Positions 1-64,000 of a stretch of DNA of 64,000 nucleotides are shown here, piece after piece. Made by a program: the position numbers and the translations under genes. The DNA is from Mobula hypostoma (lineage: Eukaryota). The notes beneath the pieces are model-generated. The model had not been told where the DNA came from. It searched no databases and saw only the letters and a program-made list of their open reading frames with translations. The stretch's first letter is position 1; each line of letters begins with the position of its first letter. The DNA lies in contig NC_086097.1 of NCBI RefSeq assembly GCF_963921235.1, positions 107,634,001 to 107,698,000 on the forward strand. Reading direction: 5' to 3'.

Positions 1-3000
1 GACCAGGCCGGAGACCCGAGAACAGGCCGGAGACCCGAGGCGATGCCAGAGGCCGGAGTCCCGAGGCGAGGCCACAGGCCGGAGACCCGAGGCGAGGCCA
101 GAGGCCGGAGACCTGACGCCGGAAACCTGAGGCGAGGCCGGAGGCCGGAGACCTGAGGCGATGCCGGAGGCCGGAGACCTGAGGCGATGCTAGAGACCGG
201 AGACCTGAGGCCAGTGGCCTGAGACCTGAGGCAGGTGACCTGAGGCGATGCCGGAGACTGGAGACTTGAGGCGACGCCGGAGGCCAGAGACCTGAGGCAA
301 GGCCGGAGGCCGGAGACTTGAGGCGAGGCCAGTGGCCGGAGGCCGGAGGCCGGAGACTTGAGGCGAGGCCGGAGACATGAGGCCTGAGGCCAGAGACTTG
401 ATCCCAGAGACCTGAGGCCAGAGGCCAGAGGCTGGAAACCTGAGGCCAGAGACTTGAGGCCGGAGACCCAAGGCCAGAAGCTGGAGGCCGGAGACCTGAT
501 GCCAGAGCCCGGAGACCTGAGGCCGGTGTCCTGAGGCGAGGCCAGAGGCCAGAGACCTGAGGCGAGGCCGGAAGCCAGAGACCTGAGGCGAGGCCGGAGA
601 CTTGAGGCGAAGCTGGAGGCTGGAGGCCGGAAGCCAGAGACCTGAGGCGAGGCCGGAGACTTGAGGCGAAGCTGGAGGCTGGAGGCCGGAGACTTGAGGC
701 CAGGCCAGAGGCCGGAGACCTGAGGCCAGGCCCGAAGCCGGAGACCTGAGGCCAGGCCCGAGGCCGGAGACCTGAGGCCAGGCCTGAGGCCGGAGACCTG
801 AGACCAGGCCGGAAACCCGAGGCGATGCCAGAGGCCGGAGACCCGAGGCCGGAAGCCAGAGACCTGAGGCGAGGCCGGAGACTTGAGGCGAAGCTGGAGG
901 CCGGAGGCCGGAGACTTGAGGCCAGGCCAGAGGCCGGAGACCTGAGGCCAGGCCCGAGGCCGGAGACCTGAGGCCAGGCCCGAGGCTGGAGACCTGAGGC
1001 CAGGCCCGAGGCCGGGGACCTGAGACCAGGCCTGAGGCCGGAGACCTGAGGCCGGAGACCTGAGACCAGGCCGGAGACCCGAGAACAGGCCGGAGACCCG
1101 AGGCGATGCCAGAGGCCGGAGTCCCGAGGCGAGGCCACAGGCCGGAGACCCGAGGCGAGGCCAGAGGCCGGAGACCTGACGCCGGAAACCTGAGGCGAGG
1201 CCGGAGGCCGGAGACCCGAGGCGAGGTCCGAGGCCGGAGACCTGAGGCTAGAGACCGGAGACTGGAGACCTGAGGCCAGAGGCCGCAGACCTGATGCCAA
1301 AGGCCAGAGGTTGCAGACCTGAGGCCCGAGGCTGGAGACCGGAGACCAGAGGCCAGAGGCCAGAGGCTGGAGACTTGAGGCGACGCTGGAGGCCGGAGGC
1401 CGGAGACCTGAGGCCAGGTCCGAGGCTGGAGACCTGAGGCCAGGCCCGAGGCCGGTGACCTGAGGCCGGAGACCTGAGGCCAGGCCTGAGGCCGGAGTCC
1501 TGAGGCCAGGCCTGAGGACGGAGTCCTGAGGCCAGGCCTGAGGACAGAGACCTGAGACCAGGCCGGAGACCCGAGGCGATGCCAGAGGCCGGAGACCCGA
1601 GGCGAGGCCAGAGGCCGGAGACCTGAGACCGGAGACCTGAGGCGAGGGCGGAGACGTGAGGCGAGGCCGGAGGCCGGAGACCTGAGGCGATGCCGGAGGC
1701 CGGAGGCCGGAGACTTGAGGCGACGCCGGAGGCCAGAGACCAGAGACCTGAGGTGAGGCCGGAGGCCGGAGACCTGGGGCGATGCCAGAGGCCAGAGGCG
1801 GGAGACCTGAGGCGAGGCCGGAGGCCGGAGACCTGAGGCCAGAGGCCGGAGACCCGAGGCGAGGTCTGAGGCCGGAGACCCGAGGCGAGGTCCGAGGCCG
1901 GACACTGGAGACTTGAGGCCAGAGGCCGGAGACCTGATGCCAGAGGCCAGAGGTTGCAGACCTGAGACCAGAGACTGGAGACCTGAGACCAGAGGCCGGA
2001 GACCTGTGGCCGGTGACCTGAGGCGAGGCCCGAGGCCGGAGGCCGGAGACCAGAGACCAGAGGCCAGAGACCGGAGACCTGAGGCCGGTGTCCTGAGATG
2101 AGGCCCGAGGCCAGAGACCTGAAGCGAGGCCCGAGGCCGGAGACCGGAGACCAGAGGCCAGAGACCGGAGACCTGAGGCTGGAGACCTGAGGCCGGTGTC
2201 CTGAGGCGAGGCCGGAGGCCAGAGACCTGAGGCGAGGCCGGAGACTTGAGGCCAGGCCAGAGGCCGGAGACCTGAGGCCAGGCCCGAGGCCGGTGACCTG
2301 AGGCCGGAGACCTGAGACCAGGCCTGAGGCCGGAGACCTGAGGCCAACCCTGAGGCTGGAGAACTGAGACCAGGCCGGAGACCCGAGGCGATGCCAGAGG
2401 CCGGAGACCCAAGGCGAGGCCAGAGGCCGGAGACCTGAGGTGAGGCCGGAGGCCGGAGACCTGAGGCCAGAGGCCGGAGACCCGAGGCGAGATCTGAGGC
2501 CGGAGACCCGAGGCGAGGTCCGAGGCCGGAGACCCGAGGCGAGGTCCGAGGCCGGAGACTGGAGACCTGAGGCCAGAGGCCGGAGACCTGATGCCAGAGG
2601 CCAGAGGTTGCAGACCTGAGGCCAGAGGCTGGAGACCTGAGACCAGAGGTCGGAGACCTGAGGCGAGGCCCGAGGCCGGAGACCGGAGACAAGAGGCCAG
2701 AGGCCGGAGACCTGAGGCCGGTGACCTGAGGTGAGGCCCGAGGCCGGAGACCGGAGACCAGAGGCCAGAGACCGGAGACCTGAGGCCGGAGACCTGAGGC
2801 CGGTGTCCTGAGACGAGGCCCGAGGCCGGAGACCTGAGGCAAGGCCCGAGGCCGGAGACCGGAGACCAGAGGCCAGAGAGCGGAGACCTGAGGCCGGAGA
2901 CCTGAGGCCGGTGTACTGAGACGAGGCCCAAGGCCGGAGACCTGAGGCAAGGCCCGAGGCTGGAGACCGGAGACCAGAGGCCAGAGACCGGAGACCTGAG

Positions 3001-6000
3001 GCCGGAGACCTGAGGCCGGTGTCCTGAGGTGAGGCCGGAGGCCAGAGACCTGAGGCGAGGCCGGAGACTTGAGGCGAAGCTGGAGGCCGGAGGCCGGAGA
3101 CTTGAGGCGATGCCGGTGGCCGGAGACCAGAGGCCAGAGGCCAGAGGCCAGAGACCTGAGGCCGGAGACTTGAGGCAAGGCCAGAGGCCGGAGACCCAAG
3201 GCGAAGCCAGAGGCCGGAGACCCGAGGCGAGGCCAGAGGCCGGAGACCTGAGGCGAGGCCGGAGGCCGGAGGCCGGAGACCGGAGACCAGAGGCCAGAGA
3301 CCGGAGACCTGAGGCCGGTGTCCTGAGATGAGGCCCGAGGCCGGAGACCTGAAGCGAGGCCCGAGGCCGGAGACCGGAGACCAGAGGCCAGAGACCGGAG
3401 ACCTGAGGCTGGAGACCTGAGGCCGGTGTCCTGAGGCGAGGCCGGAGGCCAGAGACCTGAGGCGAGGCCGGAGACTTGAGGCCAGGCCAGAGGCCGGAGA
3501 CCTGAGGCCAGGCCCGAGGCCGGTGACCTGAGGCCGGAGACCTGAGACCAGGCCTGAGGCCGGAGACCTGAGGCCAACCCTGAGGCTGGAGAACTGAGAC
3601 CAGGCCGGAGACCCGAGGCGATGCCAGAGGCCGGAGACCCAAGGCGAGGCCAGAGGCCGGAGACCTGAGGTGAGGCCGGAGGCCGGAGACCTGAGGCCAG
3701 AGGCCGGAGACCCGAGGCGAGATCTGAGGCCGGAGACCCGAGGCGAGGTCCGAGGCCGGAGACCCGAGGCGAGGTCCGAGGCCGGAGACTGGAGACCTGA
3801 GGCCAGAGGCCGGAGACCTGATGCCAGAGGCCAGAGGTTGCAGACCTGAGGCCAGAGGCTGGAGACCTGAGACCAGAGGTCGGAGACCTGAGGCGAGGCC
3901 CGAGGCCGGAGACCGGAGACAAGAGGCCAGAGGCCGGAGACCTGAGGCCGGTGACCTGAGGTGAGGCCCGAGGCCGGAGACCGGAGACAAGAGGCCAGAG
4001 GCCGGAGACCTGAGGCCGGTGACCTGAGGTGAGGCCCGAGGCCGGAGACCGGAGACCAGAGGCCAGAGACCGGAGACCTGAGGCCGGAGACCTGAGGCCG
4101 GTGTCCTGAGACGAGGCCCGAGGCCGGAGACCTGAGGCAAGGCCCGAGGCCGGAGACCGGAGACCAGAGGCCAGAGAGCGGAGACCTGAGGCCGGTGTAC
4201 TGAGACGAGGCCCAAGGCCGGAGACCTGAGGCAAGGCCCGAGGCCGGAGACCGGAGACCAGAGGCCAGAGACCGGAGACCTGAGGCCGGAGACCTGAGGC
4301 CGGTGTCCTGAGGTGAGGCCGGAGGCCAGAGACCTGAGGCGAGGCCGGAGACTTGAGGCGAAGCTGGAGGCCGGAGGCCGGAGACTTGAGGCGATGCCGG
4401 TGGCCGGAGACCAGAGGCCAGAGGCCAGAGGCCAGAGACCTGAGGCCGGAGACTTGAGGCAAGGCCAGAGGCCGGAGACCCAAGGCGAAGCCAGAGGCCG
4501 GAGACCCGAGGCGAGGCCAGAGGCCGGAGACCTGAGGCCGGAGACCTGAGGCGAGGCCGGAGGCCGGAGACCTGAGGCGATGCCGGAGGCCGGAGACCTG
4601 AGGCGATGCTAGAGGGCGGAGACCTGAGGCCAGTGGTCCGAGACCTGAGGCGGGTGACCTGAGGCGAGGCCGGAGGCCGGAGACTTGAGGCGAGGCTAGT
4701 GGCCGGTGGACGGAGAATTGAGTCGAGGCCTGAGGCCGGAGGCCGGAGACTTGAGGCGACGCCGGAGGCCAGAGACCAGAGACCTGAGGCGAGGCCGGAG
4801 GCCGGAGACCTGAGGCGATGCCAGAGGCCAGAGGCCGGAGACCTGAGGCGAGGCCGGAGGCCGGAGACCTGAGGCCAGAGGCCGGAGACCCGAGGCGAGG
4901 TCCGAGGCCGGAGACCCGAGGCCGGTGACCTGAGGCGAGGCGGGAGACTTGAGGCGAAGCTGGAGGCCGGAGACTTGAGGCAAGGCCAGAGGCCGGAGAC
5001 CTGAGGCCAGGCCCGAGGCTGGAGACCTGAGGCCAGGCCCGAGGCCGGTGAACTGAGGCCAGGGAACTGAGACCAGGCCTGAGGCCGGAGACCTGAGGCC
5101 AGGCCTGAGGCCGGAGACCTGAGGCCAGGCCTGAGGCCAGGCCTGAGGCCGGAGACCTGAGACCAGGCCGGAGACCCGAGGCGATGCCAGAGGCCGGAGA
5201 CCCGAGGCGAGGCCAGAGGCCGGAGACCCGAGGCGAGGCCAGAGGCCGGAGACCTGAGGCGAGGCCAGAGGCCGGAGACCTGAGGTCGGAAAACTGAGGC
5301 GAGGCCGGAGATGTGAGGCGAGGCCGGAGGCCGGAGACCTGAGGCGATGCCGGAGGCCGGAGAACTGAGGCCAGAGGCCAGAGGCCTGAGACCTGAGGCT
5401 GGTGACCTGAGGCGATGCCGGAGGCCGGAGACTTGAGGCGAGCCGGTGGCCGGAGGCCGGAGACCAGAGGCGACGCCGGAGGCCGGAGACCCGAGGTGGG
5501 GCCAGAGGCTGGAGACCCGAGGCGGGGCCAGAGGCCGGAGACCCGAGGCGAGGTCCGAGGCCGGAGACCCGAGGCGAGGTCCGAGGCCGGAGACCCGATG
5601 CAAGGTCCGAGGCCGGAGACCCGAGGCCGGAGACCTGAGGCTAGAGACCGGAGACTGGAGACCTGAAGCCAGAGGCCGCAGACCTGATGCCAGAGGCCAG
5701 AGGTTGCAGACCTGAGGCCCGAGGCCGGAGACGGGAGACCAGAGGCCAGAGACCTGAGTCCGGTGACCTGAGGCGAGGCCGGAGACTTGAGGCGAAGCTG
5801 GAGGCCGGAGGAAGGAGACTTGAGGCAAGGCCAGAGGCCGGAGACTTGAGGCGAAGCTGGAGGCCGGAGGCCGGAGACTTGAGGCAAGGCCAGAGGCCCG
5901 AGACCTGAGGCCAGGCCCGAGGCTGGAGACCTGAGGCCAGGCCCGAGGCCGGTGACCTGAGGCCGGAGACCTGAGGCCAGGCCTGAGGCCGGTGACCTGA

Positions 6001-9000
6001 GACCAGGCCGTAGACCCGAGGCAATGCCAGAGGCCGGAGACCCGAGGCGAAGCCAGAGGCCGGAGACCCGAGGCGAGGCCAGAGGCCGCTGAGGCGAGGC
6101 CGGAGACGTGAGGTGAGGCCGGAGGCCGGAGACCTGAGGCGATGCTAGAGGCCGGAGACCTGAGGCCAGTGGTCTGAGACCTGAGGCGGGTGACCTGAGG
6201 CAAGGCCGGAGGCCGGAGACTTGAGGCGACGCCGGAGGCCAGAGACCAGAGACCTGAGGCGATGCCAGAGGCCAGAGGCTGGAGACCTGAGGCGATGCCA
6301 GAGGCCAGAGGCCGGAGACCTGAGGCGAGGCCGGAGGCCGGAGACCTGAGGCCAGAGCCCGGAGACCCGAGGCGAGGTCCGAGGCCGGAGACCCGAGGCG
6401 AGGTCCGAGGCCGGAGACCCGAGGCGAGGTCCGAGGCTGGAGACCCGAGGCGAGGTCCGAGGCCGGAGACTGGAGACCTGAGGCCAGAGGCCGGAGACCT
6501 GATGCCAGAGGCCAGAGGTTGCAGACCTGAGGCCAGAGGCTGGAGACCTGAGACCAGAGGCCGGAGACCTGAGGCGAGGCCCGAGGCCGGAGACCGGAGA
6601 CAAGAGGCCAGAAGCCAGAGGCCGGAGACCTGAGGCCGGTGACCTGAGGCGAGGCGGGAGACTTGAGGCGAAGCTGGAGGCCGGAGACTTGAGGCAAGGC
6701 CAGAGGCCGGAGACCTGAGGCCAGGCCCGAGGCTGAAGACCTGAGGCCAGGCCCGAGGCCGGTGAACTGAGGCCGGGGACCTGAGACCAGGCCTGAGGCC
6801 GGAGACCTGAGGCTGGTGACCTGAGGCGATGCCGGAGGCCGGAGACTTGAGGCGACGCCGGAGGCCGGAGACTTGAGGCGAGCCGGTGGCCGGAGGCCGG
6901 AGATCAGAGGCCAGAGGCCAGAGGCCGGAGACCTGAGGCGAGGCCGGAGGCCGGAGACCTGAGGTCCGAGGCCGGAGACCCGAGGCGAGGTCCGAGGCCA
7001 GAGACTGGAGACCTGAGGCCAGAGGCCGGAGACCTGATGCCAGAGGCCAGAGGTTGCAGACCTGAGACCAGAGGCTGGAGACCTGAGACCAGAGGCCAGA
7101 GACCTGAGGCAAGGCCCGAGGCCGGAGACCGGAGACAAGAGGCCAGAGGCCAGAGGCCGGAGACCTGAGGCCGGTGACCTGAAGCGAGGCGGGAGACTTG
7201 AGGCGAAGCTGGAGGCCGGAGACTTGAGGCAAGGCCAGAGGCCGGATACCTGAGGCCAGGCCCGAGGCTGGAGACCTGAGGCCAGGCCCGAGGCCGGTGA
7301 ACTGAGGCCTGGGACCTGAGACCAGGCCTGAGGCCGGAGATCTGAGGCCAGGCCTGAGGCCGGAGACCTGAGACCAGGCCGGAGACCCGAGGCGATGCCA
7401 GAGGCCGGAGACCCGAGGCGAGGCCGGAGGCCGGAGACCTGAGGTCGGAAACCTGAGGCGAGGCCGGAGACCTGAGGCGATGCCGGAAGCCGGAGACCTG
7501 AGGCCAGGCCAGAAACCCGAGGCGATGCCGGAGGCCAGAGACCTGAGGCCAGAGGCCAGAGGCCTGAGACCTGAGGCTGGTGACCTGAGGCGATGCCGGA
7601 GACCGGAGATTTGAGGCGACGCCGGAGGCCGGAGACTTGAGGCGAGCCGGTGGCCGGAGGCCGGAGACCCGAGGCGGGGCCAGAGGCCGGAGACCCGAGG
7701 CGAGGTCCGAGGCCGGAGACCCGAGGCGAGGTCCGAGGCCAGAGACCCGAGGCGAGGTCCGAGGCCGGAGACCCGAGGCGAGGTCCGATGCCGGAGACCT
7801 GAGGCTAGAGACCGGAGACTGGAGACCTGAGGCCAGAGGCCGCAGACCTGATGCCAGAGGCCAGAGGTTGCAGACCTGAGGCCCGAGGCCGGAGACCGGA
7901 GACCAGAGGCCAGAGGCCAGAGGCCAGAGACCTGAGTCCGGTGACCTGAGGCGAGGCCGGAGACTTGAGGCGAAGCTGGAGGCCGGAGGAAGGAGACTTG
8001 AGGCAAGGTCAGAGGCCGGAGACTTGAGGCGAGGCCAGTGGCCGGAGGACGGAGACTTGAGGCGAGGCCGGAGGCCGGAGACCTGAGGCGATGCCAGAGG
8101 CCAGAGGCCGGAGACCTGAGGCCAGAGGCCGGAGACCCGAGGCGAGGTCCGAGGCCGGAGACCCGAGGCGAGGTCCGAGGCCGGAGACTTGAGGCAAGGC
8201 CGGAGGCCGGAGGCCGGAGACCTGAGGCGAGGCCGGTGGCCGGAGGCCGGAGACCTGAGGTGAGGCCGGTGGCCGGAGGCCGGAGACATGAGGCCGGAGA
8301 CTTGAGGCCGGAGGCCGGAGACCTGAGGCGAGGCCGGAGACCTGAGGCGAGGCCAGAGACCTGAGGCCAGAGACTTGAGGCATGGCTGGAGGCTGGAGGC
8401 TGGAGACTTGAGGCGAGGCCGGAGACCTGAGGCGAGGCCGGAGGCCTGAGGCCAGAGACCTGACGCCAGAGGCCGGAGACCTGAGGTTAGAGACTTGAGG
8501 CCAGAGACCTGAGGCCAGAGGCCAGAGGCCAGATTCCAGAGGCCTGAGACCTGAGTCCACAGGCTGGAGACCTGAGGCCTGAGGCCAGAGGCCAGATTCC
8601 AGAGGCCTGAGACCTGAGTCCAGAGGCTGGAGACCTGAGGCCTGAGGCCAGAGGCCGGAGACCTGAGGCCAGAGGCCGGAGACCTGAGGCCTGAGGCCAG
8701 AGGCCGGAGCCCTGAGGCGATGCCAGAGGCCAAAGGCCGGAGACCTGAGACTTGAGGCAAGGCCGGAGGCCTGAGGCGAGTTCGGAGACCTGAGACCCGA
8801 GGCGAAGCTGGAGGCTGGAGGCAGGAGTCTTGAGGTGAGGCTGGTGGCCGGAGGCCGGAGACTTGAGGCGAGACCGGAGACCTGAAGCCAGAGGCCGGAG
8901 ACCTGAGGCGAGGCCCGAAGCCGGAGACCTGAGGCGAGGCCCGAAGCCGGAGACCTGAGGCGAGGCCCAAGGCCGGAGACCTGAGACCTGAGGCGAGGCC

Positions 9001-12000
9001 GGAGACCTGAGGCCAGAGACCCGATGCGATGCCAGAGGCCGGAGACCCGAGGTGAGGCCAGAGGCCGGAGACCTGAGGCCGGAGACTTGAGGCGATGCCG
9101 GAGGCCGGAGATCTGAGGTGAGGCCCGAGGCTGGAGACTTGAGGCGAGGCCCGAGGCCGGAGACCCGAGGCGATGCCGGAGGCCGGAGGCCCGAGGCGAG
9201 GCCGGAGGCCGGAGACCTGAGGCTGGAGACCGGAGACTGGAGACCTGAGGCCAGAGGCCGGAGACCTGATGCCAGAGGCCGGAGACCTGTGACCAGAGGC
9301 TGGAGACCTGAGGCCAGAGGCCAAAGGTTGCAGCCCTGAGGCCAGAGGCTGGAGACCTGAGACCAGAGGCCGGAGACCTGAGGCGAGGCCCGAGGCCGGA
9401 GACCTGAGGCGAGGCCCGAGGCCGGAGACCGGAGACCAGAGGCCAGAGGCCGGAGACCTGAGGCCGGAGACCTGAGGCCGGTGTCCTGAGGTGAGGCCGG
9501 AGGCCAGAGACCTGAGGCGAGGCCGGAGACTTGAGGCGAAGCTGGAGGCCGGAGGCCGGAGACTTGAGGCCAGGCCAGAGGCCGGAGACCTGAGGCCATG
9601 CCCGAGGCCGGAGACCCGAGGCCAGGCCCGAGGCCGGAGACCCGAGGCGAGGCCAGAGGCCGGAGACCCGAGGCGAGGCCGGAGACCTGAGACGATGCCG
9701 GAGACCGGAGACCTAAGGCCAGAGGCCAGAGGCCTGAGACCTGAGGCTGGTGACCTGAGGCGATGCCGGAGGCCGGAGACTTGAGGCGACGCCGGAGGCC
9801 GGAGACTTGAGGCGAGCCGGTGGCCGGAGGCCGGAGACTTGAGGCAAGGCCGGAGGCCGGAGGCCGGAGACCTGAGGCGAGGCCGGTGGCCGGAGGCCGG
9901 AGACCTGAGGTGAGGCCGGTGGCCGGAGGCCGGAGACATGAGGCCGGAGACTTGAGGCCGGAGGCCGGAGACCTGAGGCGAGGCCCGAGGCCGGAGGCCA
10001 GAGGCGAGGCCCGAGGCCGGAGGCCCGAGGCGAGGCCGGAGGCCGGAGACCTGAGGCTAGAGACCGGAGACTGGAGACCTGAGGCCAGAGGCCGGAGACC
10101 TGATGCCAGAGGCCGGAGACCTGTGACCAGAGGCTGGAGACCTGAGGCCAGAGGCCAAAGGTTGCAGCCCTGAGGCCAGAGGCTGGAGACCTGAGACCAG
10201 AGGCCGGAGACCTGAGGCGAGGCCCGAGGCCGGAGACCGGAGACCAGAGGCCAGAGGCCGGACACCTGAGGCCGGAGACCTGAGGCCGGTGTCCTGAGGT
10301 GAGGCCGGAGGCCAGAGACCTGAGGCGAGGCCGGAGACTTGAGGCGAAGCTGGAGGCCGGAGGCCGGAGACTTGAGGCCAGGCCAGAGGCCGGAGACCTG
10401 AGGCCAGGCCCGAGGCCGGAGACCCGAGGCCAGGCCCGAGGCCGGAGACCCGAGGCGAGGCCAGAGGCCGGAGACCCGAGGCGAGGCCGGAGACCTGAGA
10501 CGATGCCGGAGGCCGGAGACCTAAGGCCAGAGGCCAGAGGCCTGAGACCTGAGGCTGGTGACCTGAGGCGATGCCGGAGGCCGGAGACTTGAGGCGACGC
10601 CGGAGGCCGGAGACTTGAGGTGAGCCGGTGGCCGGAGGCCGGAGACTTGAGGCAAGGCCGGAGGCCGGAGGCCGGAGACCTGAGGCGAGGCCGGTGGCCG
10701 GAGGCCGGAGACCTGAGGCGAGGCCGGTGGCCGGAGGCCGGAGACCTGAGGTGAGGCCGGTGGCCGGAGGCCGGAGACATGAGGCCGGAGACTTGAGGCC
10801 GGAGGCCGGAGACCTGAGGCGAGGCCCGAGGCCGGAGGCCAGAGGCGAGGCCCGAGGCCGGAGGCCAGAGGCGAGGCCTGAGACCGGAGACCTGAGGCCG
10901 GAGACCTGAGGCGAGGCCGGTGGCCGGAGACCTGAGGCGAGGCCCGAGGCCGGAGGCCGGAGACCTGAGGCGAGGCCCGAGGCCGGAGGCCGGAGGCCTG
11001 AGGCGAGGCCCGAGGCCGGAGACCTGAGCCGAGGCCCGAGGCCGGAGGCCAGAGGTGAGGCCCGAGGCCGGAGACCTGAGGCCGGAGGCTGGAGACCTGA
11101 GGCGAGGCCGGTGGCCGGTGGCCGGAGACCTGAGGCGAGTCCGGTGGCCGGAGACCTGAGGTGAGGCCGGTGGCCGGAGGCCGGAGACCTGAGGCGAGGA
11201 TGGTGGCCGGAGGCCGGAGACCTGAGGCGAGGCTGGTGGCCGGAGGCCGGAGACCTGAGGCCGGAGACCTGAGGCGAAGCTGGAGGCCAGAGGCCGGAGA
11301 CTTGAGGCGAGGCTGGAGGCCGGAGTCCTGAGGCGAAGCTGGAGGCCGGAGACCTGAGGCTAGAGACCGGAGACTGGAGACCTGAGGCCAGAGGCCGGAG
11401 ACCTGATGCCAGAGGCCGGAGACCTGTGACCAGAGGCTGGAGACCTGAGGCCAGAGGCCAAAGGTTGCAGCCCTGAGGCCAGAGGCTGGAGACCTGAGAC
11501 CAGAGGCCGGAGACCTGAGGCGAGGCCCGAGGCCGGAGACCTGAGGCGAGGCCCGAGGCCGGAGACCGGAGACCAGAGGCCAGAGGCCGGAGACCTGAGG
11601 CCGGAGACCTGAGGCCGGTGTCCTGAGGTGAGGCCGGAGGCCAGAGACCTGAGGCGAGGCCGGAGACTTGAGGCGAAGCTGGAGGCCGGAGGCCGGAGAC
11701 TTGAGGCCAGGCCAGAGGCCGGAGACCTGAGGCCATGCCCGAGGCCGGAGACCCGAGGCCAGGCCCGAGGCCGGAGACCCGAGGCGAGGCCAGAGGCCGG
11801 AGACCCGAGGCGAGGCCGGAGACCTGAGACGATGCCGGAGACCGGAGACCTAAGGCCAGAGGCCAGAGGCCTGAGACCTGAGGCTGGTGACCTGAGGCGA
11901 TGCCGGAGGCCGGAGACTTGAGGCGACGCCGGAGGCCGGAGACTTGAGGCGAGCCGGTGGCCGGAGGCCGGAGACTTGAGGCAAGGCCGGAGGCCGGAGG

Positions 12001-14786
12001 CCGGAGACCTGAGGCGAGGCCGGTGGCCGGAGGCCGGAGACCTGAGGTGAGGCCGGTGGCCGGAGGCCGGAGACATGAGGCCGGAGACTTGAGGCCGGAG
12101 GCCGGAGACCTGAGGCGAGGCCCGAGGCCGGAGGCCAGAGGCGAGGCCCGAGGCCGGAGGCCCGAGGCGAGGCCGGAGGCCGGAGACCTGAGGCTAGAGA
12201 CCGGAGACTGGAGACCTGAGGCCAGAGGCCGGAGACCTGATGCCAGAGGCCGGAGACCTGTGACCAGAGGCTGGAGACCTGAGGCCAGAGGCCAAAGGTT
12301 GCAGCCCTGAGGCCAGAGGCTGGAGACCTGAGACCAGAGGCCGGAGACCTGAGGCGAGGCCCGAGGCCGGAGACCGGAGACCAGAGGCCAGAGGCCGGAC
12401 ACCTGAGGCCGGAGACCTGAGGCCGGTGTCCTGAGGTGAGGCCGGAGGCCAGAGACCTGAGGCGAGGCCGGAGACTTGAGGCGAAGCTGGAGGCCGGAGG
12501 CCGGAGACTTGAGGCCAGGCCAGAGGCCGGAGACCTGAGGCCAGGCCCGAGGCCGGAGACCCGAGGCGAGGCCGGAGACCTGAGACGATGCCGGAGGCCG
12601 GAGACCTAAGGCCAGAGGCCAGAGGCCTGAGACCTGAGGCTGGTGACCTGAGGCGATGCCGGAGGCCGGAGACTTGAGGCGACGCCGGAGGCCGGAGACT
12701 TGAGGTGAGCCGGTGGCCGGAGGCCGGAGACTTGAGGCAAGGCCGGAGGCCGGAGGCCGGAGACCTGAGGCGAGGCCGGTGGCCGGAGGCCGGAGACCTG
12801 AGGCGAGGCCGGTGGCCGGAGGCCGGAGACCTGAGGTGAGGCCGGTGGCCGGAGGCCGGAGACATGAGGCCGGAGACTTGAGGCCGGAGGCCGGAGACCT
12901 GAGGCGAGGCCCGAGGCCGGAGGCCAGAGGCGAGGCCCGAGGCCGGAGGCCAGAGGCGAGGCCTGAGACCGGAGACCTGAGGCCGGAGACCTGAGGCGAG
13001 GCCGGTGGCCGGAGACCTGAGGCGAGGCCCGAGGCCGGAGGCCGGAGACCTGAGGCGAGGCCCGAGGCCGGAGGCCGGAGGCCTGAGGCGAGGCCCGAGG
13101 CCGGAGACCTGAGCCGAGGCCCGAGGCCGGAGGCCAGAGGCGAGGCCCGAGGCCGGAGACCTGAGGCCGGAGGCTGGAGACCTGAGGCGAGGCCGGTGGC
13201 CGGTGGCCGGAGACCTGAGGCGAGTCCGGTGGCCGGAGACCTGAGGTGAGGCCGGTGGCCGGAGGCCGGAGACCTGAGGCGAGGATGGTGGCCGGAGGCC
13301 GGAGACCTGAGGCGAGGCTGGTGGCCGGAGGCCGGAGACCTGAGGCCGGAGACCTGAGGCGAAGCTGGAGGCCAGAGGCCGGAGACTTGAGGCGAGGCTG
13401 GAGGCCGGAGTCCTGAGGCGAAGCTGGAGGCTGGAGGCCAGAGACTTGAGGCCAGGCCCGAGGCCGGAGACCCGAGGCCAGGCCCGAGGCCGGAGACCCG
13501 AGGCGAGGCCAGAGGCCGGAGACCCGAGGCGAGGCCGGAGACCTGAGACGATGCCGGAGGCCGGAGACCTAAGGCCAGAGGCCAGAGGCCTGAGACCTGA
13601 GGCTGGTGACCTGAGGCGATGCCGGAGGCCGGAGACTTGAGGCGACGCCGGAGGCCGGAGACTTGAGGTGAGCCGGTGGCCGGAGGCCGGAGACTTGAGG
13701 CAAGGCCGGAGGCCGGAGGCCGGAGACCTGAGGCGAGGCCGGTGGCCGGAGGCCGGAGACCTGAGGCGAGGCCGGTGGCCGGAGGCCGGAGACCTGAGGT
13801 GAGGCCGGTGGCCGGAGGCCGGAGACATGAGGCCGGAGACTTGAGGCCGGAGGCCGGAGACCTGAGGCGAGGCCCGAGGCCGGAGGCCAGAGGCGAGGCC
13901 CGAGGCCGGAGGCCAGAGGCGAGGCCTGAGACCGGAGACCTGAGGCCGGAGACCTGAGGCGAGGCCGGTGGCCGGAGACCTGAGGCGAGGCCCGAGGCCG
14001 GAGGCCGGAGACCTGAGGCGAGGCCCGAGGCCGGAGGCCGGAGGCCTGAGGCGAGGCCCGAGGCCGGAGACCTGAGCCGAGGCCCGAGGCCGGAGGCCAG
14101 AGGCGAGGCCCGAGGCCGGAGACCTGAGGCCGGAGGCTGGAGACCTGAGGCGAGGCCGGTGGCCGGTGGCCGGAGACCTGAGGCGAGTCCGGTGGCCGGA
14201 GACCTGAGGTGAGGCCGGTGGCCGGAGGCCGGAGACCTGAGGCGAGGATGGTGGCCGGAGGCCGGAGACCTGAGGCGAGGCTGGTGGCCGGAGGCCGGAG
14301 ACCTGAGGCGAAGCTGGAGGCCAGAGGCCGGAGACTTGAGGCGAGGCTGGAGGCCGGAGTCCTGAGGCGAAGCTGGAGGCTGGAGGCCAGAGACTTGAGG
14401 CGAGGCTGGAGGCTGGAGGCCGGATACTTGAGGCGAGGCCGGAGGCTGGAGGTGAAGCTGTTGGCTGGAGGCCGGAGACTTGAGGGGAGGCCGGAGGCCG
14501 GAGACCTGAGGCGAGGCCCGAGGCCAGAGGCCGGAGACCTGAGGCCGGAGACCGGAGACTTGAGGCGAGGCCGGTGGCCGGAGACCTGAGGCCAGAGGCC
14601 GGAGACTTGAGGCGAGGCTGGAGGCCGGAGACCTGAGGCGAAGCTGGAGGCTGGAGGCCAGAGACTTGAGGCGAGGCTGGAGGCCGGAGACTTGAGGCGA
14701 GGCCGGAGGCTGGAGGTGAAGCTGTTGGCTGGAGGCCGGAGACTTGAGGCGAGGCCGGAGGCTGGAGACTTGAGGCAAGGCGAGGC
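1..14786. repeat. GC-rich tandem satellite of 7-bp (GAGGCCG, GAGACCT, GAGGCCA, GAGACCC, GAGACTT) and 5-bp (GAGGC) units with higher-order duplications; runs off the left window edge
   Basis: Units directly visible throughout. Rare marker motifs recur at fixed spacing, e.g. AGGCCAACCC at 2341/3571 and CCAAAGGTTGCAGCCC at 9321/10155/11458/12292. Confidence 0.97.
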
Positions 14787-15260
14787 AGGCTCCTCCTGGG
14801 CAGGGCACGGATCACCACCTGACAGAAGCAAGGGACAGGAAGGGACAGAACCAACCCCATGTAACGGCAAGACGGCCTGGCTTACCTGGGCAGAGGCAAG
14901 GGACAGAAAGGGAGCTAGGTACAGGGTGGCTCCAGGACCAGACAGCAAGACAAGGCAAGGCTACAGGCAAAGCAAGGCAAGACAAGAACTTCAGGCGAGG
15001 CGAGAGTTACTGGCAAGTCAAGGCAGGGCTTCAGGCGAGGAAACAGAAGGCAGGGGAAGGGATACAAGGAGTAAGGACAAGAACCATCTAGCAACCACAC
15101 CCTGGTCTCTGGAGGTATTTCTGCAGCCCGCCCCAACGAGCATCAGCTGCCTCAATTAGCTCAACAAGGACAGAAACAGGGTAAATAGGAAAACTTGGAG
15201 CAAGGGTCAATGGACAGGACCGTGATCCGGAATACGGACTTCACGGACCAGACTATGACA
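14787..15260 (-). mobile_element. Non-satellite outer part of a probable Gypsy-type LTR whose interior is the satellite
   Basis: Minus strand starts TGTCATAGTCTGG exactly where the hAT transposase is cut (15260/15261). Contains a GC box, CAGCTG and a TATA-like GAAATACC. CAAGG/CAAGA pentamers and TTCAGGCGAGG motifs grade into the satellite units. Confidence 0.6.
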
Positions 15261-57689: not shown

Positions 57690-59174
57690 AAACTATTTGG
57701 GAGAGGAGACAAACTGAAAACACAAACTGAGGACACAAACTGAAAATGAAGCTGACGTCTGGAGGCCAAACACAACAGTTAGAGCTTTATACATTGAAAA
57801 GGGGAGGGCCAGCACTTTTTGGATGTGAATGGTTGAGAAAAATCCAACTCGACTGGCACTCAATCAAAACTCGCAGTGTGGCATCAACAGGCAGCTGCAG
57901 CCTAAATGGTAGCACTAACCAGAGGCTGTCAGAGCTGCTTAATGCTAATCAGAAGGTGTTTGAGAAGGGAATAGATAAACAGATTGAAGACTTGGCCAAA
58001 AACTTTCGAATGCCAAAAAGTTCAAAATGCACCACTAAAATCACCGTTACATCCATGGGAGTGGCCATCTTCACCATGGCAAAGAGTATATATTGACTTT
58101 GCTGGGTCACTCATGGACTCCATGTTTCTAATTGCTGTGTATCCTCATTCAAAATGGCCAGAGGTTATATCAATGAAGACAACCACCTCAGCAAAGACTG
58201 CCTCCACCGTGAGGACTATTTTCACCAGTAACAGCTTACCCAAACAATCATGATTGACAACAGACCACAATACATGTCAGAAGAATTCCGACTGGTCATG
58301 AAGAAAAATAGATCCTCACCACCCAGCAACGAATGTTAGCTGAAAGGCTTATACAAACCTTCAAGAGGTCAAGAACCTTCAAACCTTCATTAAAGTGATG
58401 GACAAGGATGTCATTTCGCTACAACACAAGGTGGACAACTTCTTTTTTGTGTATCGGAACTCTGTACATGCAATGACAAATCAAACACCTGCAATGCTGT
58501 TCATGAACAGGAATCTGAGATCTCGCATAGACATCCTGAAACCAGACCTCTGGAGGGAAGTGCAGAATAAACAGTTCTACCAGTTGCCAAGTGAATCAGC
58601 AAGGAGCTTCTAGTTTGGACAGGAAGTCCCAGCACGTGATTACCCAGAAGGCAAGTGGACACCCAGTAGGACAGCTATGAGAACTGGACCACTGATGTAC
58701 ACAGTGAATGTTGGAGATCTGACACATGTGGACCAGATACTGGATGCCCAGCCAAAGAACACACCTGAGCCGATTGCATCCAACAAGACAGACACATTAC
58801 AGCCACCGGACTTACCTCTCAGTGATGATCATGTCTCTGACAGCGACATGATACCAGCAACCAAGAGCGTTCTCTTAGACAAGACACCTAGCAAACCTAA
58901 TGCCACTCCGCAGGTCCAGAGGCACTATCCTGACAGAAACAGAGTGCCACCCAAAAGAGTGAACCTTTAGAACTGTGAAGTTAGTTATGGACTGTTATTG
59001 TGAAAGCATGTTTATTTGGATAATGGGTTTATGAAAGGGAAATTGAATATTTTGTATATATACAGTTTTATGTTACACCACTAAAGGGGAGGAAATGTAA
59101 TGTATGGATCTATTTCTTTTAGAGCCATGACTCCTCCCACCCCCAGCACGATGTATTGATCTGTTGTCTGTGCA

Positions 59175-59178: not shown

Positions 59179-59223
<45 letters not shown>

Positions 59224-59722
59224 CTCTCCCTCTCTCCCTCTCTCTCCCTCTCTCCCTCTCTCTCTCCCTGTCCCTGTCCCTCTCTCTCCCTCTCTCTCTC
59301 CCTCTCTCTCCCTCTCTCTCCCTCTCTCCCTCTCTCTCACTCTCTCTCTCTTCCTCTCTCCCTCTCCCTCTCTCTCTCCCTCTCTCACTCTCTCTCCTTC
59401 TCCCTCTGTCTCCCTCTCTCACTCTCTCCCCTTCTCCCTCTCTCCCTCTCTCTCCCTCTCTCCCTCTTCCTCTCCCTCTCTCTCTCCCTCTCTCTCCCTC
59501 CCTCTCTCTCTCTCTCACTCTCTCTCCTCCCTCTCTCCCCCCCTCTCTCTCTCCCTCTAACTCTCCCTCTCTCTCTCACTCTCTCCCCTCCTCCCTCTCT
59601 CCCTCTCTCTCCCTCTACCTCTCACTCTCATCCCTCTCCCTCTCTCTCTCTCTCTCACTCTCTCCCCTTCTCCCTCTCTCTCTCTCCCTCTCTCCCTCTC
59701 CCTCTCCCTCTCTCTCCCTCTC
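59179..59722. repeat. Imperfect (CT)n/(CCCTCT)n polypyrimidine tract
   Basis: Directly visible. Confidence 0.97.
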
Positions 59723-62609
59723 TGAGGTTGGGTAAAATACTGAAAGGCTTTTATTCGCTGTACAATACGACCCCATGCTGAGTGTCAGCCCCCGGACTGA
59801 GGGGGAGGGGCAAGGCGAATCACCTTTATACGAGATTCTGTGGGAGGAGCCACAGGGGCAGACACTCAGCAGAGGGGCATGTCCAGACAGTTAACCCCCC
59901 CCCGTTACATAGAAACATAGAAAATAGGTGCAGGAGTAGGCCATTCGGCCCTTCGAGCCTGCACCGCCATTTATTATGATCATGGCTGATCATCCAACTC
60001 AGAACCCCGCCCCAGCCTTCCCTCCATACCCCCTGACCCCCGTAGCCACAAGGGCCATATCTAACTCCCTCTTAAATATAGCCAATGAACTGGCCTCAAC
60101 TGTTTCCTGTGGCAGAGAATTCCACAGATTCACCACTCTCTGTGTGAAGAAGTTTTTCCTAATCTCGGTCCTAAAAGGCTTCCCCTTTATCCTCAAACTG
60201 TGACCCCTCGTTCTGGACTTCCCCAACATCGGGAACAATCTTCCTGCATCTAGCCTGTCCAATCCCTTTAGGATCTTATACGTTTCAATTCAATCATATA
60301 TGTTACAACATATATATGGTTTACCACATTCACCCCTCCTTTTTTTAAAAAAGAGTCCCGCGGGTTGAAGTGACTGACAATATTTACAGCAAGTATATTT
60401 ACAGGTCAAGTCTATCAGGCAGTCGCGTCACTCTCCACTTGGAAGGGAATGGACTCATCCACCACATGCATTGCTGCTTTGGCAATGTCCCCTGATATGT
60501 GGCTGAAGGCCGCGCGGGCCTCGGCTGAGAGGGGGAATGTGGTGGACTTGACCAGGGGCGGGCCTTGTCTACGTAGTTTGAGACCCATTGGGCGTAATAT
60601 GAAAAGAAGCCCAGGCACCTTTTGAGGGCTCTGAGAGTATTGGGAAGAGGGAGTTCCAACAGGGAGCGCATACGGTCGGGGTCAGGGCCAATGATTCCAT
60701 TCTCCACCACACACTCAAAGATAGCAAGTCGGGTGGTCCTGAATACACACTTGTCCTTGTTATAGGTGAGATTGAAAGCTTTGGCCGCTTGGAGAAATTT
60801 TTGGAAGTTGTTGTCGTGATCCTGCCAGTCGTGACCGCAGATGGTGATGTTATCCAGATATGGGAACATGGCCTTCAGTTGGCACTGATCCACCATCCGG
60901 TCCATCGCCCTCTGGAAGACAGATACACCATTCGTGACACCAAAGGGGATGCTCAGGAATTGATAAAGCCTGCCGTCTGCCTCGAAGGCAGTGTAAGGGC
61001 AGTCCTCCCGGTGGATGGGGAGCTGTTGGTAAGTGGATTTTAGGTCTATATTTGAGTACACCTTGTACTGTGCTATCTGATTGACCATATCCGCGATGCG
61101 GGGTAGACGGTACACGCTGAGCTGCGTGAACCTATTGATGGTCTGGGTATAGTCCACGGCCATCCTATTTTTCTCCCCATTCTGAACAACGACCACCCGT
61201 GCCCTCCTAGGATTTGTGCTTGCCTCAGTGACCCCCTCCCTGAGCAGCCGCTGCACCTCCGACTTAATGAAAGCTCTGTCCCCTGCGCTGTACCTCCTGC
61301 TTTTAGTTGCCACGGGTTTACAGTCGGGGGTCAGGTTGGCGAACAGCGGTGGGGGAGGGATCCAAAGGGTGGAGAGGCCGCAAGTGGCGTCGGTAGTGCA
61401 GCAGTTGGCATGGTGTTTGGTGGGGTGCCCCGTGAGCACCCATTGGTCATAGGCGGTGGGAGGTGGCGCTGACCAAGATGGCAGCCCCCATGTCTCGCAA
61501 GTGGTGGCGGCGTGCAGGGAAGATGGCGACCCCTATGTTTCGCACGCGGCGCTACTCGATCCCGCTCGCGATTTGGACTTACAGACCTTCGTGAAGTAGC
61601 CCTTCTTTCCGCAGCTGGAGCAGGTAGCTTCTCGGGCCGGGCAGCGTTTCCGGGGGTGCTTCTCCAGTCCGCAGAAGTAGCACTTCGTGGACTCGCGACT
61701 GGCAGCAACCAGGGTTAGTTCACCGGCGGGTTGCGGGGAATTGCGACTGGCAGCAGCTGAGGTCGATTCGCCGGCGGTTTGCGGGGTCTGCGGCGCCCAC
61801 GAGGCCATCGGGGGATCGCGTGCCTGGAGAGCCTTAGAGTTATGCAGAGCGGCCTCTAGCATGTCGGCCAGCTCGATTGCCGAACTTAAGGTAAGATCGG
61901 CTTTTCCCAACAGCCGCTGGCACACATACACTGACCTGGTCCCCCTGACGAAGGCGTCTCTCACGAGGAGTTCTGCATGCTGCGCCGCCGTCAGCTCCTG
62001 GCAATGGCAGGCCCACACAAGTGTCTGTAGTGCCTGGACAAACTCAGCACTCGATTCCCCGGGCTGTTGTTGCCTTGTCGCTAAGCGGTGCTAAGCATAG
62101 ACGCTGTTTATTGGCCGCAGGTATTGTCTTTTGAGGGCACTCATCGCGCCATCGTAGTTCAGCTGGTCGCTGATCAGCGAATAGACTCGTGGACTGACCC
62201 TGGAGAGTAGAACTCTGCGCTTCACTACGGGGTCGGTCGCTTTAATCTCCTCTAGGTACACTTCGAAGCAAGCCAGCCAGAGTTCGAAAGTGTTTCCAGC
62301 TTCAGGTGTTTGTGGATCGAGGTCTAATTTGTCGGGTTTCAGTGCATGTTCCATGCTTTAAAATTTACAGCGAATAAAATTGAAGCACCTTCAATAACTC
62401 CAAAAGACTGAAGTTGAGTAAAATACTGAAAGGCTTTTATTTGCTGTAGAATACCACCTCTATGGTGAGTGTCTGCCCCCGGACTGAGGGGGAAGGGCAA
62501 GGCAAAATCACCTTTATACAGGAACCTGTGGGAGGAGCCACAGGAGCAGTCAGCAGAGGGGCGTGTCCAGACAGTTAACCCAGTTACAACATGTATATGG
62601 CTTACCACA
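59723..62609 (-). mobile_element. Internally deleted Gypsy element: 5' LTR 62381-62609, gag (two Zn knuckles), RT, start of RNase H fused to pol tail, PPT, 3' LTR 59723-60328 (split by CR1)
   Basis: Two homologous LTRs (minus strand TGTGGTAA...GCTTCA). Gag MEHALKPDKLDLDP...CYFCGLEKHPRKRCPAREATCSSCGKKGYFTKVC. RT IDLKSTYQQL...IPFGVTNG...YLDN. PFQVESDA joined to RLPDRLDL*. PPT GGAGGGGTGAA. Confidence 0.92.
59910..60289 (-). mobile_element. Short young CR1 3' end inserted in the Gypsy 3' LTR
   Basis: Tail plus RLDAGRLFPMLGKSRTRGHSL; TSD GTTACA at 59904-59909 and 60302-60307. Confidence 0.93.
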
Positions 62610-62787
62610 AGAGGGAGAGGGAGAGAGAGAGGGGGAGAGGGAGAGAGAGAGAGGGAGAGAGAGTGAGAGGGAGAGAGAGAGAAGGAGAGAGAGAGGGAGA
62701 GGGAGAGAGAGAGGGAGAGGAGAGAGGGAGAGAGAGAGGGAGAGAGAGAGGGAGAGAGAAGGAGAGAGAGAGGGAGAGGGAGAAAGG
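62610..62787. repeat. Imperfect (GA)n/(GAGAGG)n polypurine tract
   Basis: Directly visible. Confidence 0.97.
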
Positions 62788-63207
62788 AAAAATCCTATGA
62801 GATTCATCAGACATGATTTTCCTTTCACAGATCCATGCTGACTTTGTCCGATGATTTCACCGCTTTCCAAATGTGCTGTTATCACATCTTTCATAACTGA
62901 CTCTAGCATTTTGCCCACCACCGATGTTAGGCTAACTGGTCTATAATTCCCCGGTTTCTCTCTCCCTCCTTTTTTGAAAAGTGGGGTTACATTAGCCACC
63001 CTCCAATCCTCAGGAACTAGTCCAGAATCTAAAGAGTTTTGAAAAATTATCACTAATGCATCCACTATTTCTTGGGCTACTTCCTTAAGCACTCTGGGAT
63101 GCAGACCATCTGGCTCTGGGGATTTATCTCCCTTTAATCCCTTCAATTTACCTAACACCACTTCCCTACTAACATGTATATCCCTCAGTTCCTCCATCTC
63201 ACTGGAC
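62788..63207 (-). mobile_element. Internal CR1 ORF2 fragment without 3' tail
   Basis: KSPEPDGLHPRVLKE...NYRPVSLTSVVGK; close to 45043-45460. Confidence 0.9.
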
Positions 63208-63930
63208 ACTGGCCACCCGCCCCTTTGAGCGACTGAGTGTTGACTTTAAGGGCCCCCTTCCCTCCACCGACCGCAATGTGTACTTTCTTAACGTTATTGA
63301 CGAGTACTCGTGGGTCCCCTTCACCATCCCCTGCCCCAACACCACTACCACGTCAGTTATAAAAGCCCTGCGCAATCTCTTCACTCTGTTCGGATACCCA
63401 TGCTATATCCACAGTGACAGAGGGTCCTCGTTTATGAGTGACGAGCTGTGCCAATACCTACTGGCTAGGGGAATTGCAACCAGTAGGACCACGAGCTATA
63501 ATCCCCGGGGGAATGGACAGGTGGAGAAGGAGAATGGCATGGTGTGGAAAGCCCTCAGGTCAAAGGGACTGCCGGTCTCTCGCTGGCAGGAGGTCCTTCC
63601 CGAGGCACTCCACTCCATCCACTCCCTGTTATGCACAGCCACCAACACCACCCCTCATGAGAGGCTCTTTTCATTTCCCAGAAAGTCGACTACTGGGACC
63701 ACCCTACCAACTTGGCTGACGTCCCCGGGGCCAGTGCTGCTCTAGAAACATGTGAGGAGCAATAAATACTCCCCGATGGTCGAGAGGGTTCACTTACTTC
63801 ATGCGAACCCTCAGTATGCCTATGTGGTTTTACCTGATGGGCGAGAGGACAAGGTCTCCATCCACGACCTGGCGCCCGCAGGAGCACCAGGCCCCTACCC
63901 TGAACACTCCGTGGTGACTATTGACCCCAT
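63208..63930 (+). mobile_element. Gypsy integrase fragment (DDE core)
   Basis: PFERLSVDFKGPLP...VIDEYS...IHSDRGSSFMS...YNPRGNGQVEKEN; in-frame stop at 63743-63745. Confidence 0.9.
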
Positions 63931-64000
63931 GTAAGGGCGGTCCTCCCGGCAGATGGGGAGCTGATGGTAAGCGGATTTTAGGTCTATGGTTGAGTACACC
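63931..64000 (-). mobile_element. Gypsy RT fragment of the same family as 59723-62609
   Basis: Closely matches ~60993-61062. Confidence 0.75.

Follow-up and report, generated by a model that had tools for sequence, protein, structure and literature searches.

How does a Gypsy element whose primer-binding site lacks the TGG of a tRNA-type site start reverse transcription? This question is raised by a decayed retrotransposon on the minus strand of a 64,000-nucleotide stretch of DNA (hereafter the window) from the 3.48 Gb genome of the ray Mobula hypostoma. The original prediction held that the primer site of this element is the complement of a segment of its own long terminal repeat (LTR), and that this segment may serve as primer in a Gypsy lineage distinct from typical chromoviruses. 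Because the primer site matches the element's own terminal repeat instead of a tRNA, as it does in the majority of related marine elements, the element likely primes with its own RNA, and from sequence comparison we infer that its lineage as a whole probably primes reverse transcription with an RNA segment derived from its LTR. The prediction of tRNA-independent self-priming in a non-chromovirus Gypsy is supported by covariation between primer site and LTR, by a clade that stands apart from chromodomain elements, and by by-product junctions that lie at the predicted primer end.

In the accessible portions of the literature, self-priming is demonstrated for Tf1 and is a prediction for related chromoviruses and for a single plant Copia lineage; it is named there for Tf1/sushi, Tcn1 and the TAR Copia lineage (PMC6317226, PMC3601003, PMC6238403, PMC3670739, PMC4600332, PMC10085805, PMC11042837, PMC7175516, PMC5341516; supplements of PMC8556966). 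According to the same portions, the Tf1 primer consists of the transcript's first 11 bases, cut by RNase H (PMC7175516), Tf1 cDNA often keeps a single-stranded primer-site tail (PMC11042837), and self-priming of the TAR (Houba/Osr-1) lineage of Ty1/copia elements and of the Tcn1 clade of plants was inferred from complementarity between LTR and primer site (PMC6317226). The Cigr-1 clade is named without primer data in the available text of PMC6238403, PMC3670739 and the supplements of PMC8556966, and a search for such data in the available text of PMC2774666 gave no match. No description of self-priming in a non-chromovirus animal Gypsy was found in the literature searched, and Repbase, GyDB and subscription papers may hold a name for the clade or an earlier note on it. 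Self-priming is said to be noted in Repbase for some animal Gypsy entries.

The element belongs to an abundant family of compact Gypsy elements with a 229-bp LTR, a single gag-pol and 5-bp target duplications. A search of the genome with the LTR-leader region gave 2722 candidates, of which 40 were scored; a second LTR match lies approximately 4.2-4.4 kb downstream in 16 of 20 fetched copies, matching 5-bp flanks occur in most of 14 copies inspected, and the 11 copies measured are 4.41-4.56 kb long, with LTR pairs that are 92-96.5 % identical. One reading frame encodes Gag, protease, reverse transcriptase (RT), RNase H and integrase, without a chromodomain, and the family displays the TG..CA LTRs, target duplication, polypurine tract and PR-RT-RH-IN order of Ty3/gypsy LTR retrotransposons. 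The nearest solved structure is Ty3 RT (E 4e-46). Among named proteins, the closest are from Mobula hypostoma (91 %), Hypanus sabinus, Narcine and Scyliorhinus, with more distant relatives (57-65 %) in Actinostola, Ischnura, Trichuris and many further assemblies; no relatives were found in viral contigs, and a search of the ESM Atlas returned generic Gag clusters only.

The copy in the window is decayed (Table 1), having lost its protease region (~0.5 kb) and most of its RNase H-integrase region; its 3' LTR is split as well as truncated, and no target-site duplication is left. On re-reading of the minus strand, all coordinates of the original prediction proved right, and the two-knuckle Gag and YLDN RT that it described are both seen in translations of this copy. 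GA/CT-rich arrays at 59179-59722 and 62610-62790, in opposite orientation and with arms 75-88 % complementary, flank the element, and it is at such an array that the 3' LTR is cut.

Table 1. Features of the Gypsy element in the window, listed from its 5' to its 3' end (positions are those of the window)
Feature	Position	Strand	Remarks
5' LTR, 229 bp, TG...CA	62381..62609	-	ends fixed by 5-bp target duplications in other, full-length copies
TATA-like box	62513..62518	-	TATAAA at 62518; T/A polymorphic, GAATAAA in 12/62 copies
Initiator-like TCAGTC, 33 nt below TATA	62482..62487	-	A at 62485 is a candidate upstream start; stop point of three inverted copies
LTR segment complementary to primer site	62435..62448	-	62435 is the predicted 3' end of the self-primer; AG at 62445 opens the conserved 11-nt frame; AATAAA 62441-62436
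Stacked helix and inner hairpin (predicted), from primer segment to primer site	62388..62433	-	prediction only
Spacer A (62380) and primer-binding site	62366..62380	-	no TGG
gag, two CX2CX4HX4C knuckles	61533..62354	-	stop codons interrupt; protease region behind deleted
Reverse transcriptase (YLDN) and start of RNase H	60425..61428	-	RVT_1 E 2.7e-20; remaining RNase H and integrase deleted (~1.5 kb)
Polypurine tract	60329..60346	-	
3' LTR, first 27 bp	60302..60328	-	
Inserted 3' piece, which we take to be LINE-like, with short tandem tail	59906..60301	-	
3' LTR remainder	59723..59905	-	ends at LTR base 201 at GA-rich array; holds perfect complement 59762-59749

Directly after the end of the 5' LTR at 62381, the minus strand reads a spacer A (62380) and then TTTTATTCGCTGTA at 62379-62366, and the exact reverse complement of TTTTATTCGCTGTA is found in the 3' LTR. 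The window therefore has, as had been claimed, a primer site that begins one base past the LTR and is complementary to a segment of that LTR, rather than a TGG-type site. The partner in the 5' LTR (62448-62435) has one mismatch to the primer site, at a CpG position where a G-U/A-C context can still allow pairing in the fold. The leader RNA of the window is predicted to fold into a single long rod with the primer-site duplex at its base (-38.1 kcal/mol, z -2.68, 3 of 200 shuffles as good), with one position of this duplex unpaired; the further pairing within the loop that had been proposed is present in this fold as a helix between 62433-62424 and 62396-62388. When a pretzel-like arrangement was sought in minimum-energy folds, a central duplex and a U5-side helix were predicted, and no stable third duplex was seen on the 3' side of the primer site. 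In the family copy L048 the pairing extends over 16 nt, compared with a maximum of 9 in 2000 resampled LTRs, and the window 5' LTR, with its mismatch, retains a perfect run of only 7 nt, a length matched by 23 of 2000 resamples. Complementarity also exists in other family members, on which the prediction depended, as 14 of 14 pairs are kept in 35 of 53 normal ray copies and at least 13 pairs in 46, counts that favour intact sites because similarity or an exact junction pattern was the basis on which the copies were selected. At non-CpG sites of the same 53 copies, no other part of the ray LTR varies as little as the segment (1.6 % vs 2.9-5.4 %). Seven copies have the LTR variant C168A without a counterpart in the primer site (0/7), and five have the matching primer-site variant without one in the LTR (0/5); both look like sporadic later changes.

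Beyond the ray family, 88 related loci were fetched, 52 of them with a Gag start, and the 46 of these with at least 110 nt upstream were testable. In 35 of the 46 (which include repeat copies of some families, and so do not amount to 35 independent cases), CA is followed after 0-3 nt by a perfect 10-19-nt complement of a segment lying 23-69 nt upstream; control windows inside the reading frame gave perfect complements of 7 nt at most. No perfect match of at least 10 nt is present in the other 11 testable loci, among which are two interrupted matches and one damaged LTR end. When 14 primer sites from 11 distinct families were compared with all 14 LTRs, each paired over 10-19 nt with its own LTR (7 nt for the window copy, owing to its mismatch) and over no more than 9 nt with foreign LTRs, the exceptions being sister copies or families and the pair L081/L127, whose similar primers match over 11 nt. 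The pairing letters differ between families while the match between site and LTR persists; compensatory change, which had been put forward as a check on self-priming, is seen both across the 35 loci and in the cross-test. AG stands 11 nt before the predicted cut in 25 of the 35 paired loci, and (G/A)CC follows the cut in 29. Judged from these alignments, the conserved feature is an 11-nt AG...AAA/GCC frame (the slash marking the predicted cut), of the same length as the Tf1 primer. Eight bacterial MAG contigs (L132-L139) that carry these animal-type Gypsy elements are probably misbinned host DNA.

By the two features tested, namely chromodomain and RT-RNase H grouping, the element would not be a Tf1/sushi chromovirus, although it appears to work like Tf1. 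The Pfam chromodomain is absent from six of six polyproteins, and none occurs in precomputed lists of 120 homologs; a two-knuckle Gag is present in 76 of 90 homologs and a YLDN-type RT in 77 of 120. An RT-RNase H tree was inferred by quick maximum likelihood in IQ-TREE (46 rows, SH-aLRT only, unrooted, with no Tf1 or sushi-ichi reference). It recovers the element's clade (29 rows, SH-aLRT 100), with ray chromodomain-type elements elsewhere (7 rows, SH-aLRT 100; chromodomain motif in 3 of 4 checked) and a ray Mag-like group with TGG primer sites on its own branch (7 rows, SH-aLRT 100), the element's clade and the Mag-like group being two long branches that meet. The phylogeny that the original prediction called for thus sets the clade apart from ray chromodomain elements, to the extent that a quick unrooted tree free of named references can do so. 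The labels sushi-like, Mag-like and Gmr-like for the ray groups follow motifs that we take to be diagnostic. With the Mag lineage and Cigr-1 among metazoan Gypsy elements, the ray family shares compactness and short LTRs, and with Mag also a two-knuckle Gag. Unlike the family under study, the ray elements that we presume to be Mag-like have TGG-type sites and form their own branch. In the window, positions 57731-58970 of the plus strand hold fragments of another Gypsy element, presumably Mag-like by its motifs, whose relatives in the genome have TGG-type primer sites.

To judge from the accessible text of the relevant papers, the element resembles Tf1 and Tf2 of Schizosaccharomyces pombe, Tj1, Tosmo/Tcry and Tf1/sushi in having no tRNA site, a primer site complementary to its own LTR and a segment whose 3' end faces U5, and it resembles the Tf1 group also in its 11-nt core, predicted extra R/U5 helix and PR-RT-RH-IN order (PMC7175516, PMC10085805, PMC4600332). 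In contrast to Tf1/sushi, the element's clade has no chromodomain, has a two-knuckle Gag and mostly a YLDN-type RT, occupies a separate branch, and often pairs over 12-19 nt. The segment of the ray family lies ~70 nt below its TATA-like box, whereas three ray chromodomain-type LTRs have, by eye, a degenerate primer-like segment ~33 nt below a GATAA(A/G) box. The chromodomain-type elements with such a degenerate complement and a non-TGG primer site (L384, L391 and L392) probably practise ordinary sushi-type self-priming. As with TAR, self-priming would lie outside Tf1/sushi and have an independent origin (PMC6317226, as far as its accessible text goes), but in a different superfamily or clade from TAR and Tcn1, and in different hosts.

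On the model of Tf1, the transcript's 5' portion would fold back onto the primer site, the element's RNase H would cut at AAA/GCC, and the new 3' end would be extended into U5. The plus strand would later copy the primer, and the resulting tail could mis-anneal to the same segment on a second molecule, whereupon the mis-annealed plus strand would run on through U3 and yield a fold-back insertion. The clade-wide primer is predicted to be the first ~11 transcript bases (AG...AAA), whose counterpart in the ray family may reach ~51 nt through use of a TATA start farther upstream.

Fold-back insertions, in which LTR and A are followed by an inverted LTR that begins at the predicted primer end, are the new finding, with dozens present in the genome. 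A genome search with 26-base junction patterns found 35 fold-back vs 353 normal junctions, which makes the fold-back share ~9 %, and reversed controls gave 0. A looser pattern gave 57 matches, and its union with the strict pattern comprises 58 loci, all of which were read; one of them, L219, is probably a damaged normal junction and is counted among the 58 as a miss. With LTR positions numbered as in copy L048, where base 176 equals window 62435, the inverted copy spans base 176 to base 1 in 46 of the 58. Among 31 loci with both ends read, the 5-bp flanks are identical in 19 (palindromes of 389-426 bp), differ by one mismatch in 4 and differ more in 8, the last showing mostly a continuation of element sequence. 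Upon extension of 17 complex loci, several turned out to be whole elements with target duplications, in which LTR, A and inverted LTR (to base 127, 125, ~6, or the polypurine tract/internal region) give way again to the normal strand; because whole elements with target duplications contain such jumps, we infer that fold-backs are made before integration. At U3 subfamily sites 88/89/94, the first of which is close to an indel, the two arms disagree in 17 of 39 scored loci, which suggests the use of two templates. Among other origins considered, a simple inversion that followed integration was rejected in the case of the 405-bp class, in which the target duplication directly adjoins the inverted U3 start and LTR 177-230 is absent there, and amplification of one non-autonomous master was rejected in view of the commonest variant set, which also occurs in 16 of 62 normal copies. 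A search for copies ending after a short (11-nt) primer copy gave three matches, two being fold-back loci and one an internal deletion, and none of the kind sought.

As the fold-back products show, the LTR segment serves as an annealing site for plus-strand ends that carry the primer site, and the products likely record the priming step going wrong. The identity of the primer is not fixed by the products alone, as they would also arise with another primer, given that the primer site is itself complementary to the LTR. One alternative has the segment of the 3' LTR, on the same or a co-packaged RNA, cut as the primer, so that a long RNA ending in U3-R does the priming. The arm differences, which point to two templates, are in keeping with this scheme, as are inverted copies that continue through U3, the polypurine tract and the internal region, one of them back to the primer site (L260, L261, L263). 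However, the same products are explained if a short primer copy is mis-transferred to a second molecule, the exact stop at LTR base 1 in most inverted copies fits a plus-strand DNA template, and the conserved AG looks like a transcription start site; priming from the 3' LTR is on this account improbable.

For self-priming with the 5' segment, the length of the primer depends on where transcription starts. A start at the conserved AG would give an 11-nt primer as in Tf1, and pairing beyond 11 nt could represent fixed short over-extensions. Alternatively, transcription of the ray family may begin upstream, at the TATA-dependent position, with a primer of ~51 nt. For the upstream start speak the spacing of TATAAA and TCAGTC in the ray LTR (Table 1) and the four inverted copies that break off between bases 7 and 157 and do not resume, three of which end at 125-127 (L141, L146 and L158), with microhomology at two of these three junctions; against it speaks the replacement of the TATA by GAATAAA in some copies. 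Arm-to-arm differences in LTR 126-176 (2.0-2.7 %) are lower, not higher, than those in U3 (4.5 %), so that a long primer from another template gains no support. No clear linkage break was seen in 62 copies at either the predicted cut or the upstream start, and Logan contigs of related organisms contained no start, end or poly(A) junction, a result that says nothing on expression. A fuller scenario can be put forward tentatively, as one that we would sooner doubt than rely on. In it, an animal-wide Gypsy clade self-primes independently of Tf1/sushi, and the ray start has moved upstream to give a capped ~51-nt primer that is paired by its last 14-16 nt and carries the poly(A) signal. Copying of this long primer would misdirect about 1 in 11 plus strands, leaving integrase-inserted 405-bp palindromes as a fossil record of priming.

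The original prediction also suggested that the fold-back might hide the poly(A) signal of the 5' LTR. Such masking may occur in the ray family but is no conserved feature, as AATAAA or ATTAAA lies within the segment in only 20 of the 35 related loci; masking would hold for part of the clade at most. The same signal bears on a second alternative, by which the pairing is a regulatory hairpin (for poly(A) hiding, packaging or translation control) and priming takes another route. While the hexamer in those 20 loci, and the position of the sole AATAAA downstream of the TATA-like box of the ray LTR inside the duplex, would suit such a hairpin, the other 15 loci keep the pairing without the hexamer. 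Moreover, the start of the complement is fixed, mostly at one base past CA, where a primer must end, and there is no TGG there, whereas TGG-type sites are readily seen in the ray's other Gypsy groups. A purely regulatory role is, in the light of these features, just as improbable as priming from the 3' LTR. A host tRNA fragment or other small RNA that matches the site by chance deserves scarcely any credence. Half-tRNA primers are known in Copia lineages (PMC6317226, in its accessible text), and the host comparison covered tRNA-Lys(TTT) only (30 loci fetched of 60 matches), but the best match among 9 such sequences is 4 nt, no Rfam family reaches its cut-off in the LTR-leader, and the site varies between families and tracks each family's LTR, which a fixed host RNA cannot do.

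If self-priming holds true, a separate and widespread animal Gypsy clade with the 11-nt logic would be a further lineage that independently evaded both its need for host tRNA and silencing by tRNA fragments. A self-primer site would also account for the failure of annotation pipelines to detect a primer site in such elements. The fold-back insertions are an additional class of repeat, palindromic and integrase-made, through which primer length and template switching can be tested on genomic sequence by itself.

Several minor observations concern rearranged copies and the remainder of the window. Three double fold-back loci (L169, L205 and L217) have in common a jump that occurs at LTR base 202 across a short microhomology. 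A relative on a metagenome contig (L093) has identical LTRs and an internal inversion with overlap, and is likely a template-switch product. A second broken piece of the ray family, at window 63211-64000 and in L051:212-1573, has a plus-strand integrase (Pfam rve) abutting a minus-strand RT-side stretch, and may have arisen by template switching. Finally, window positions 1-15000 form a ~15 kb tract of 70 % GC, strongly skewed in both GC and AT, that is probably a long array of tandem or low-complexity sequence.
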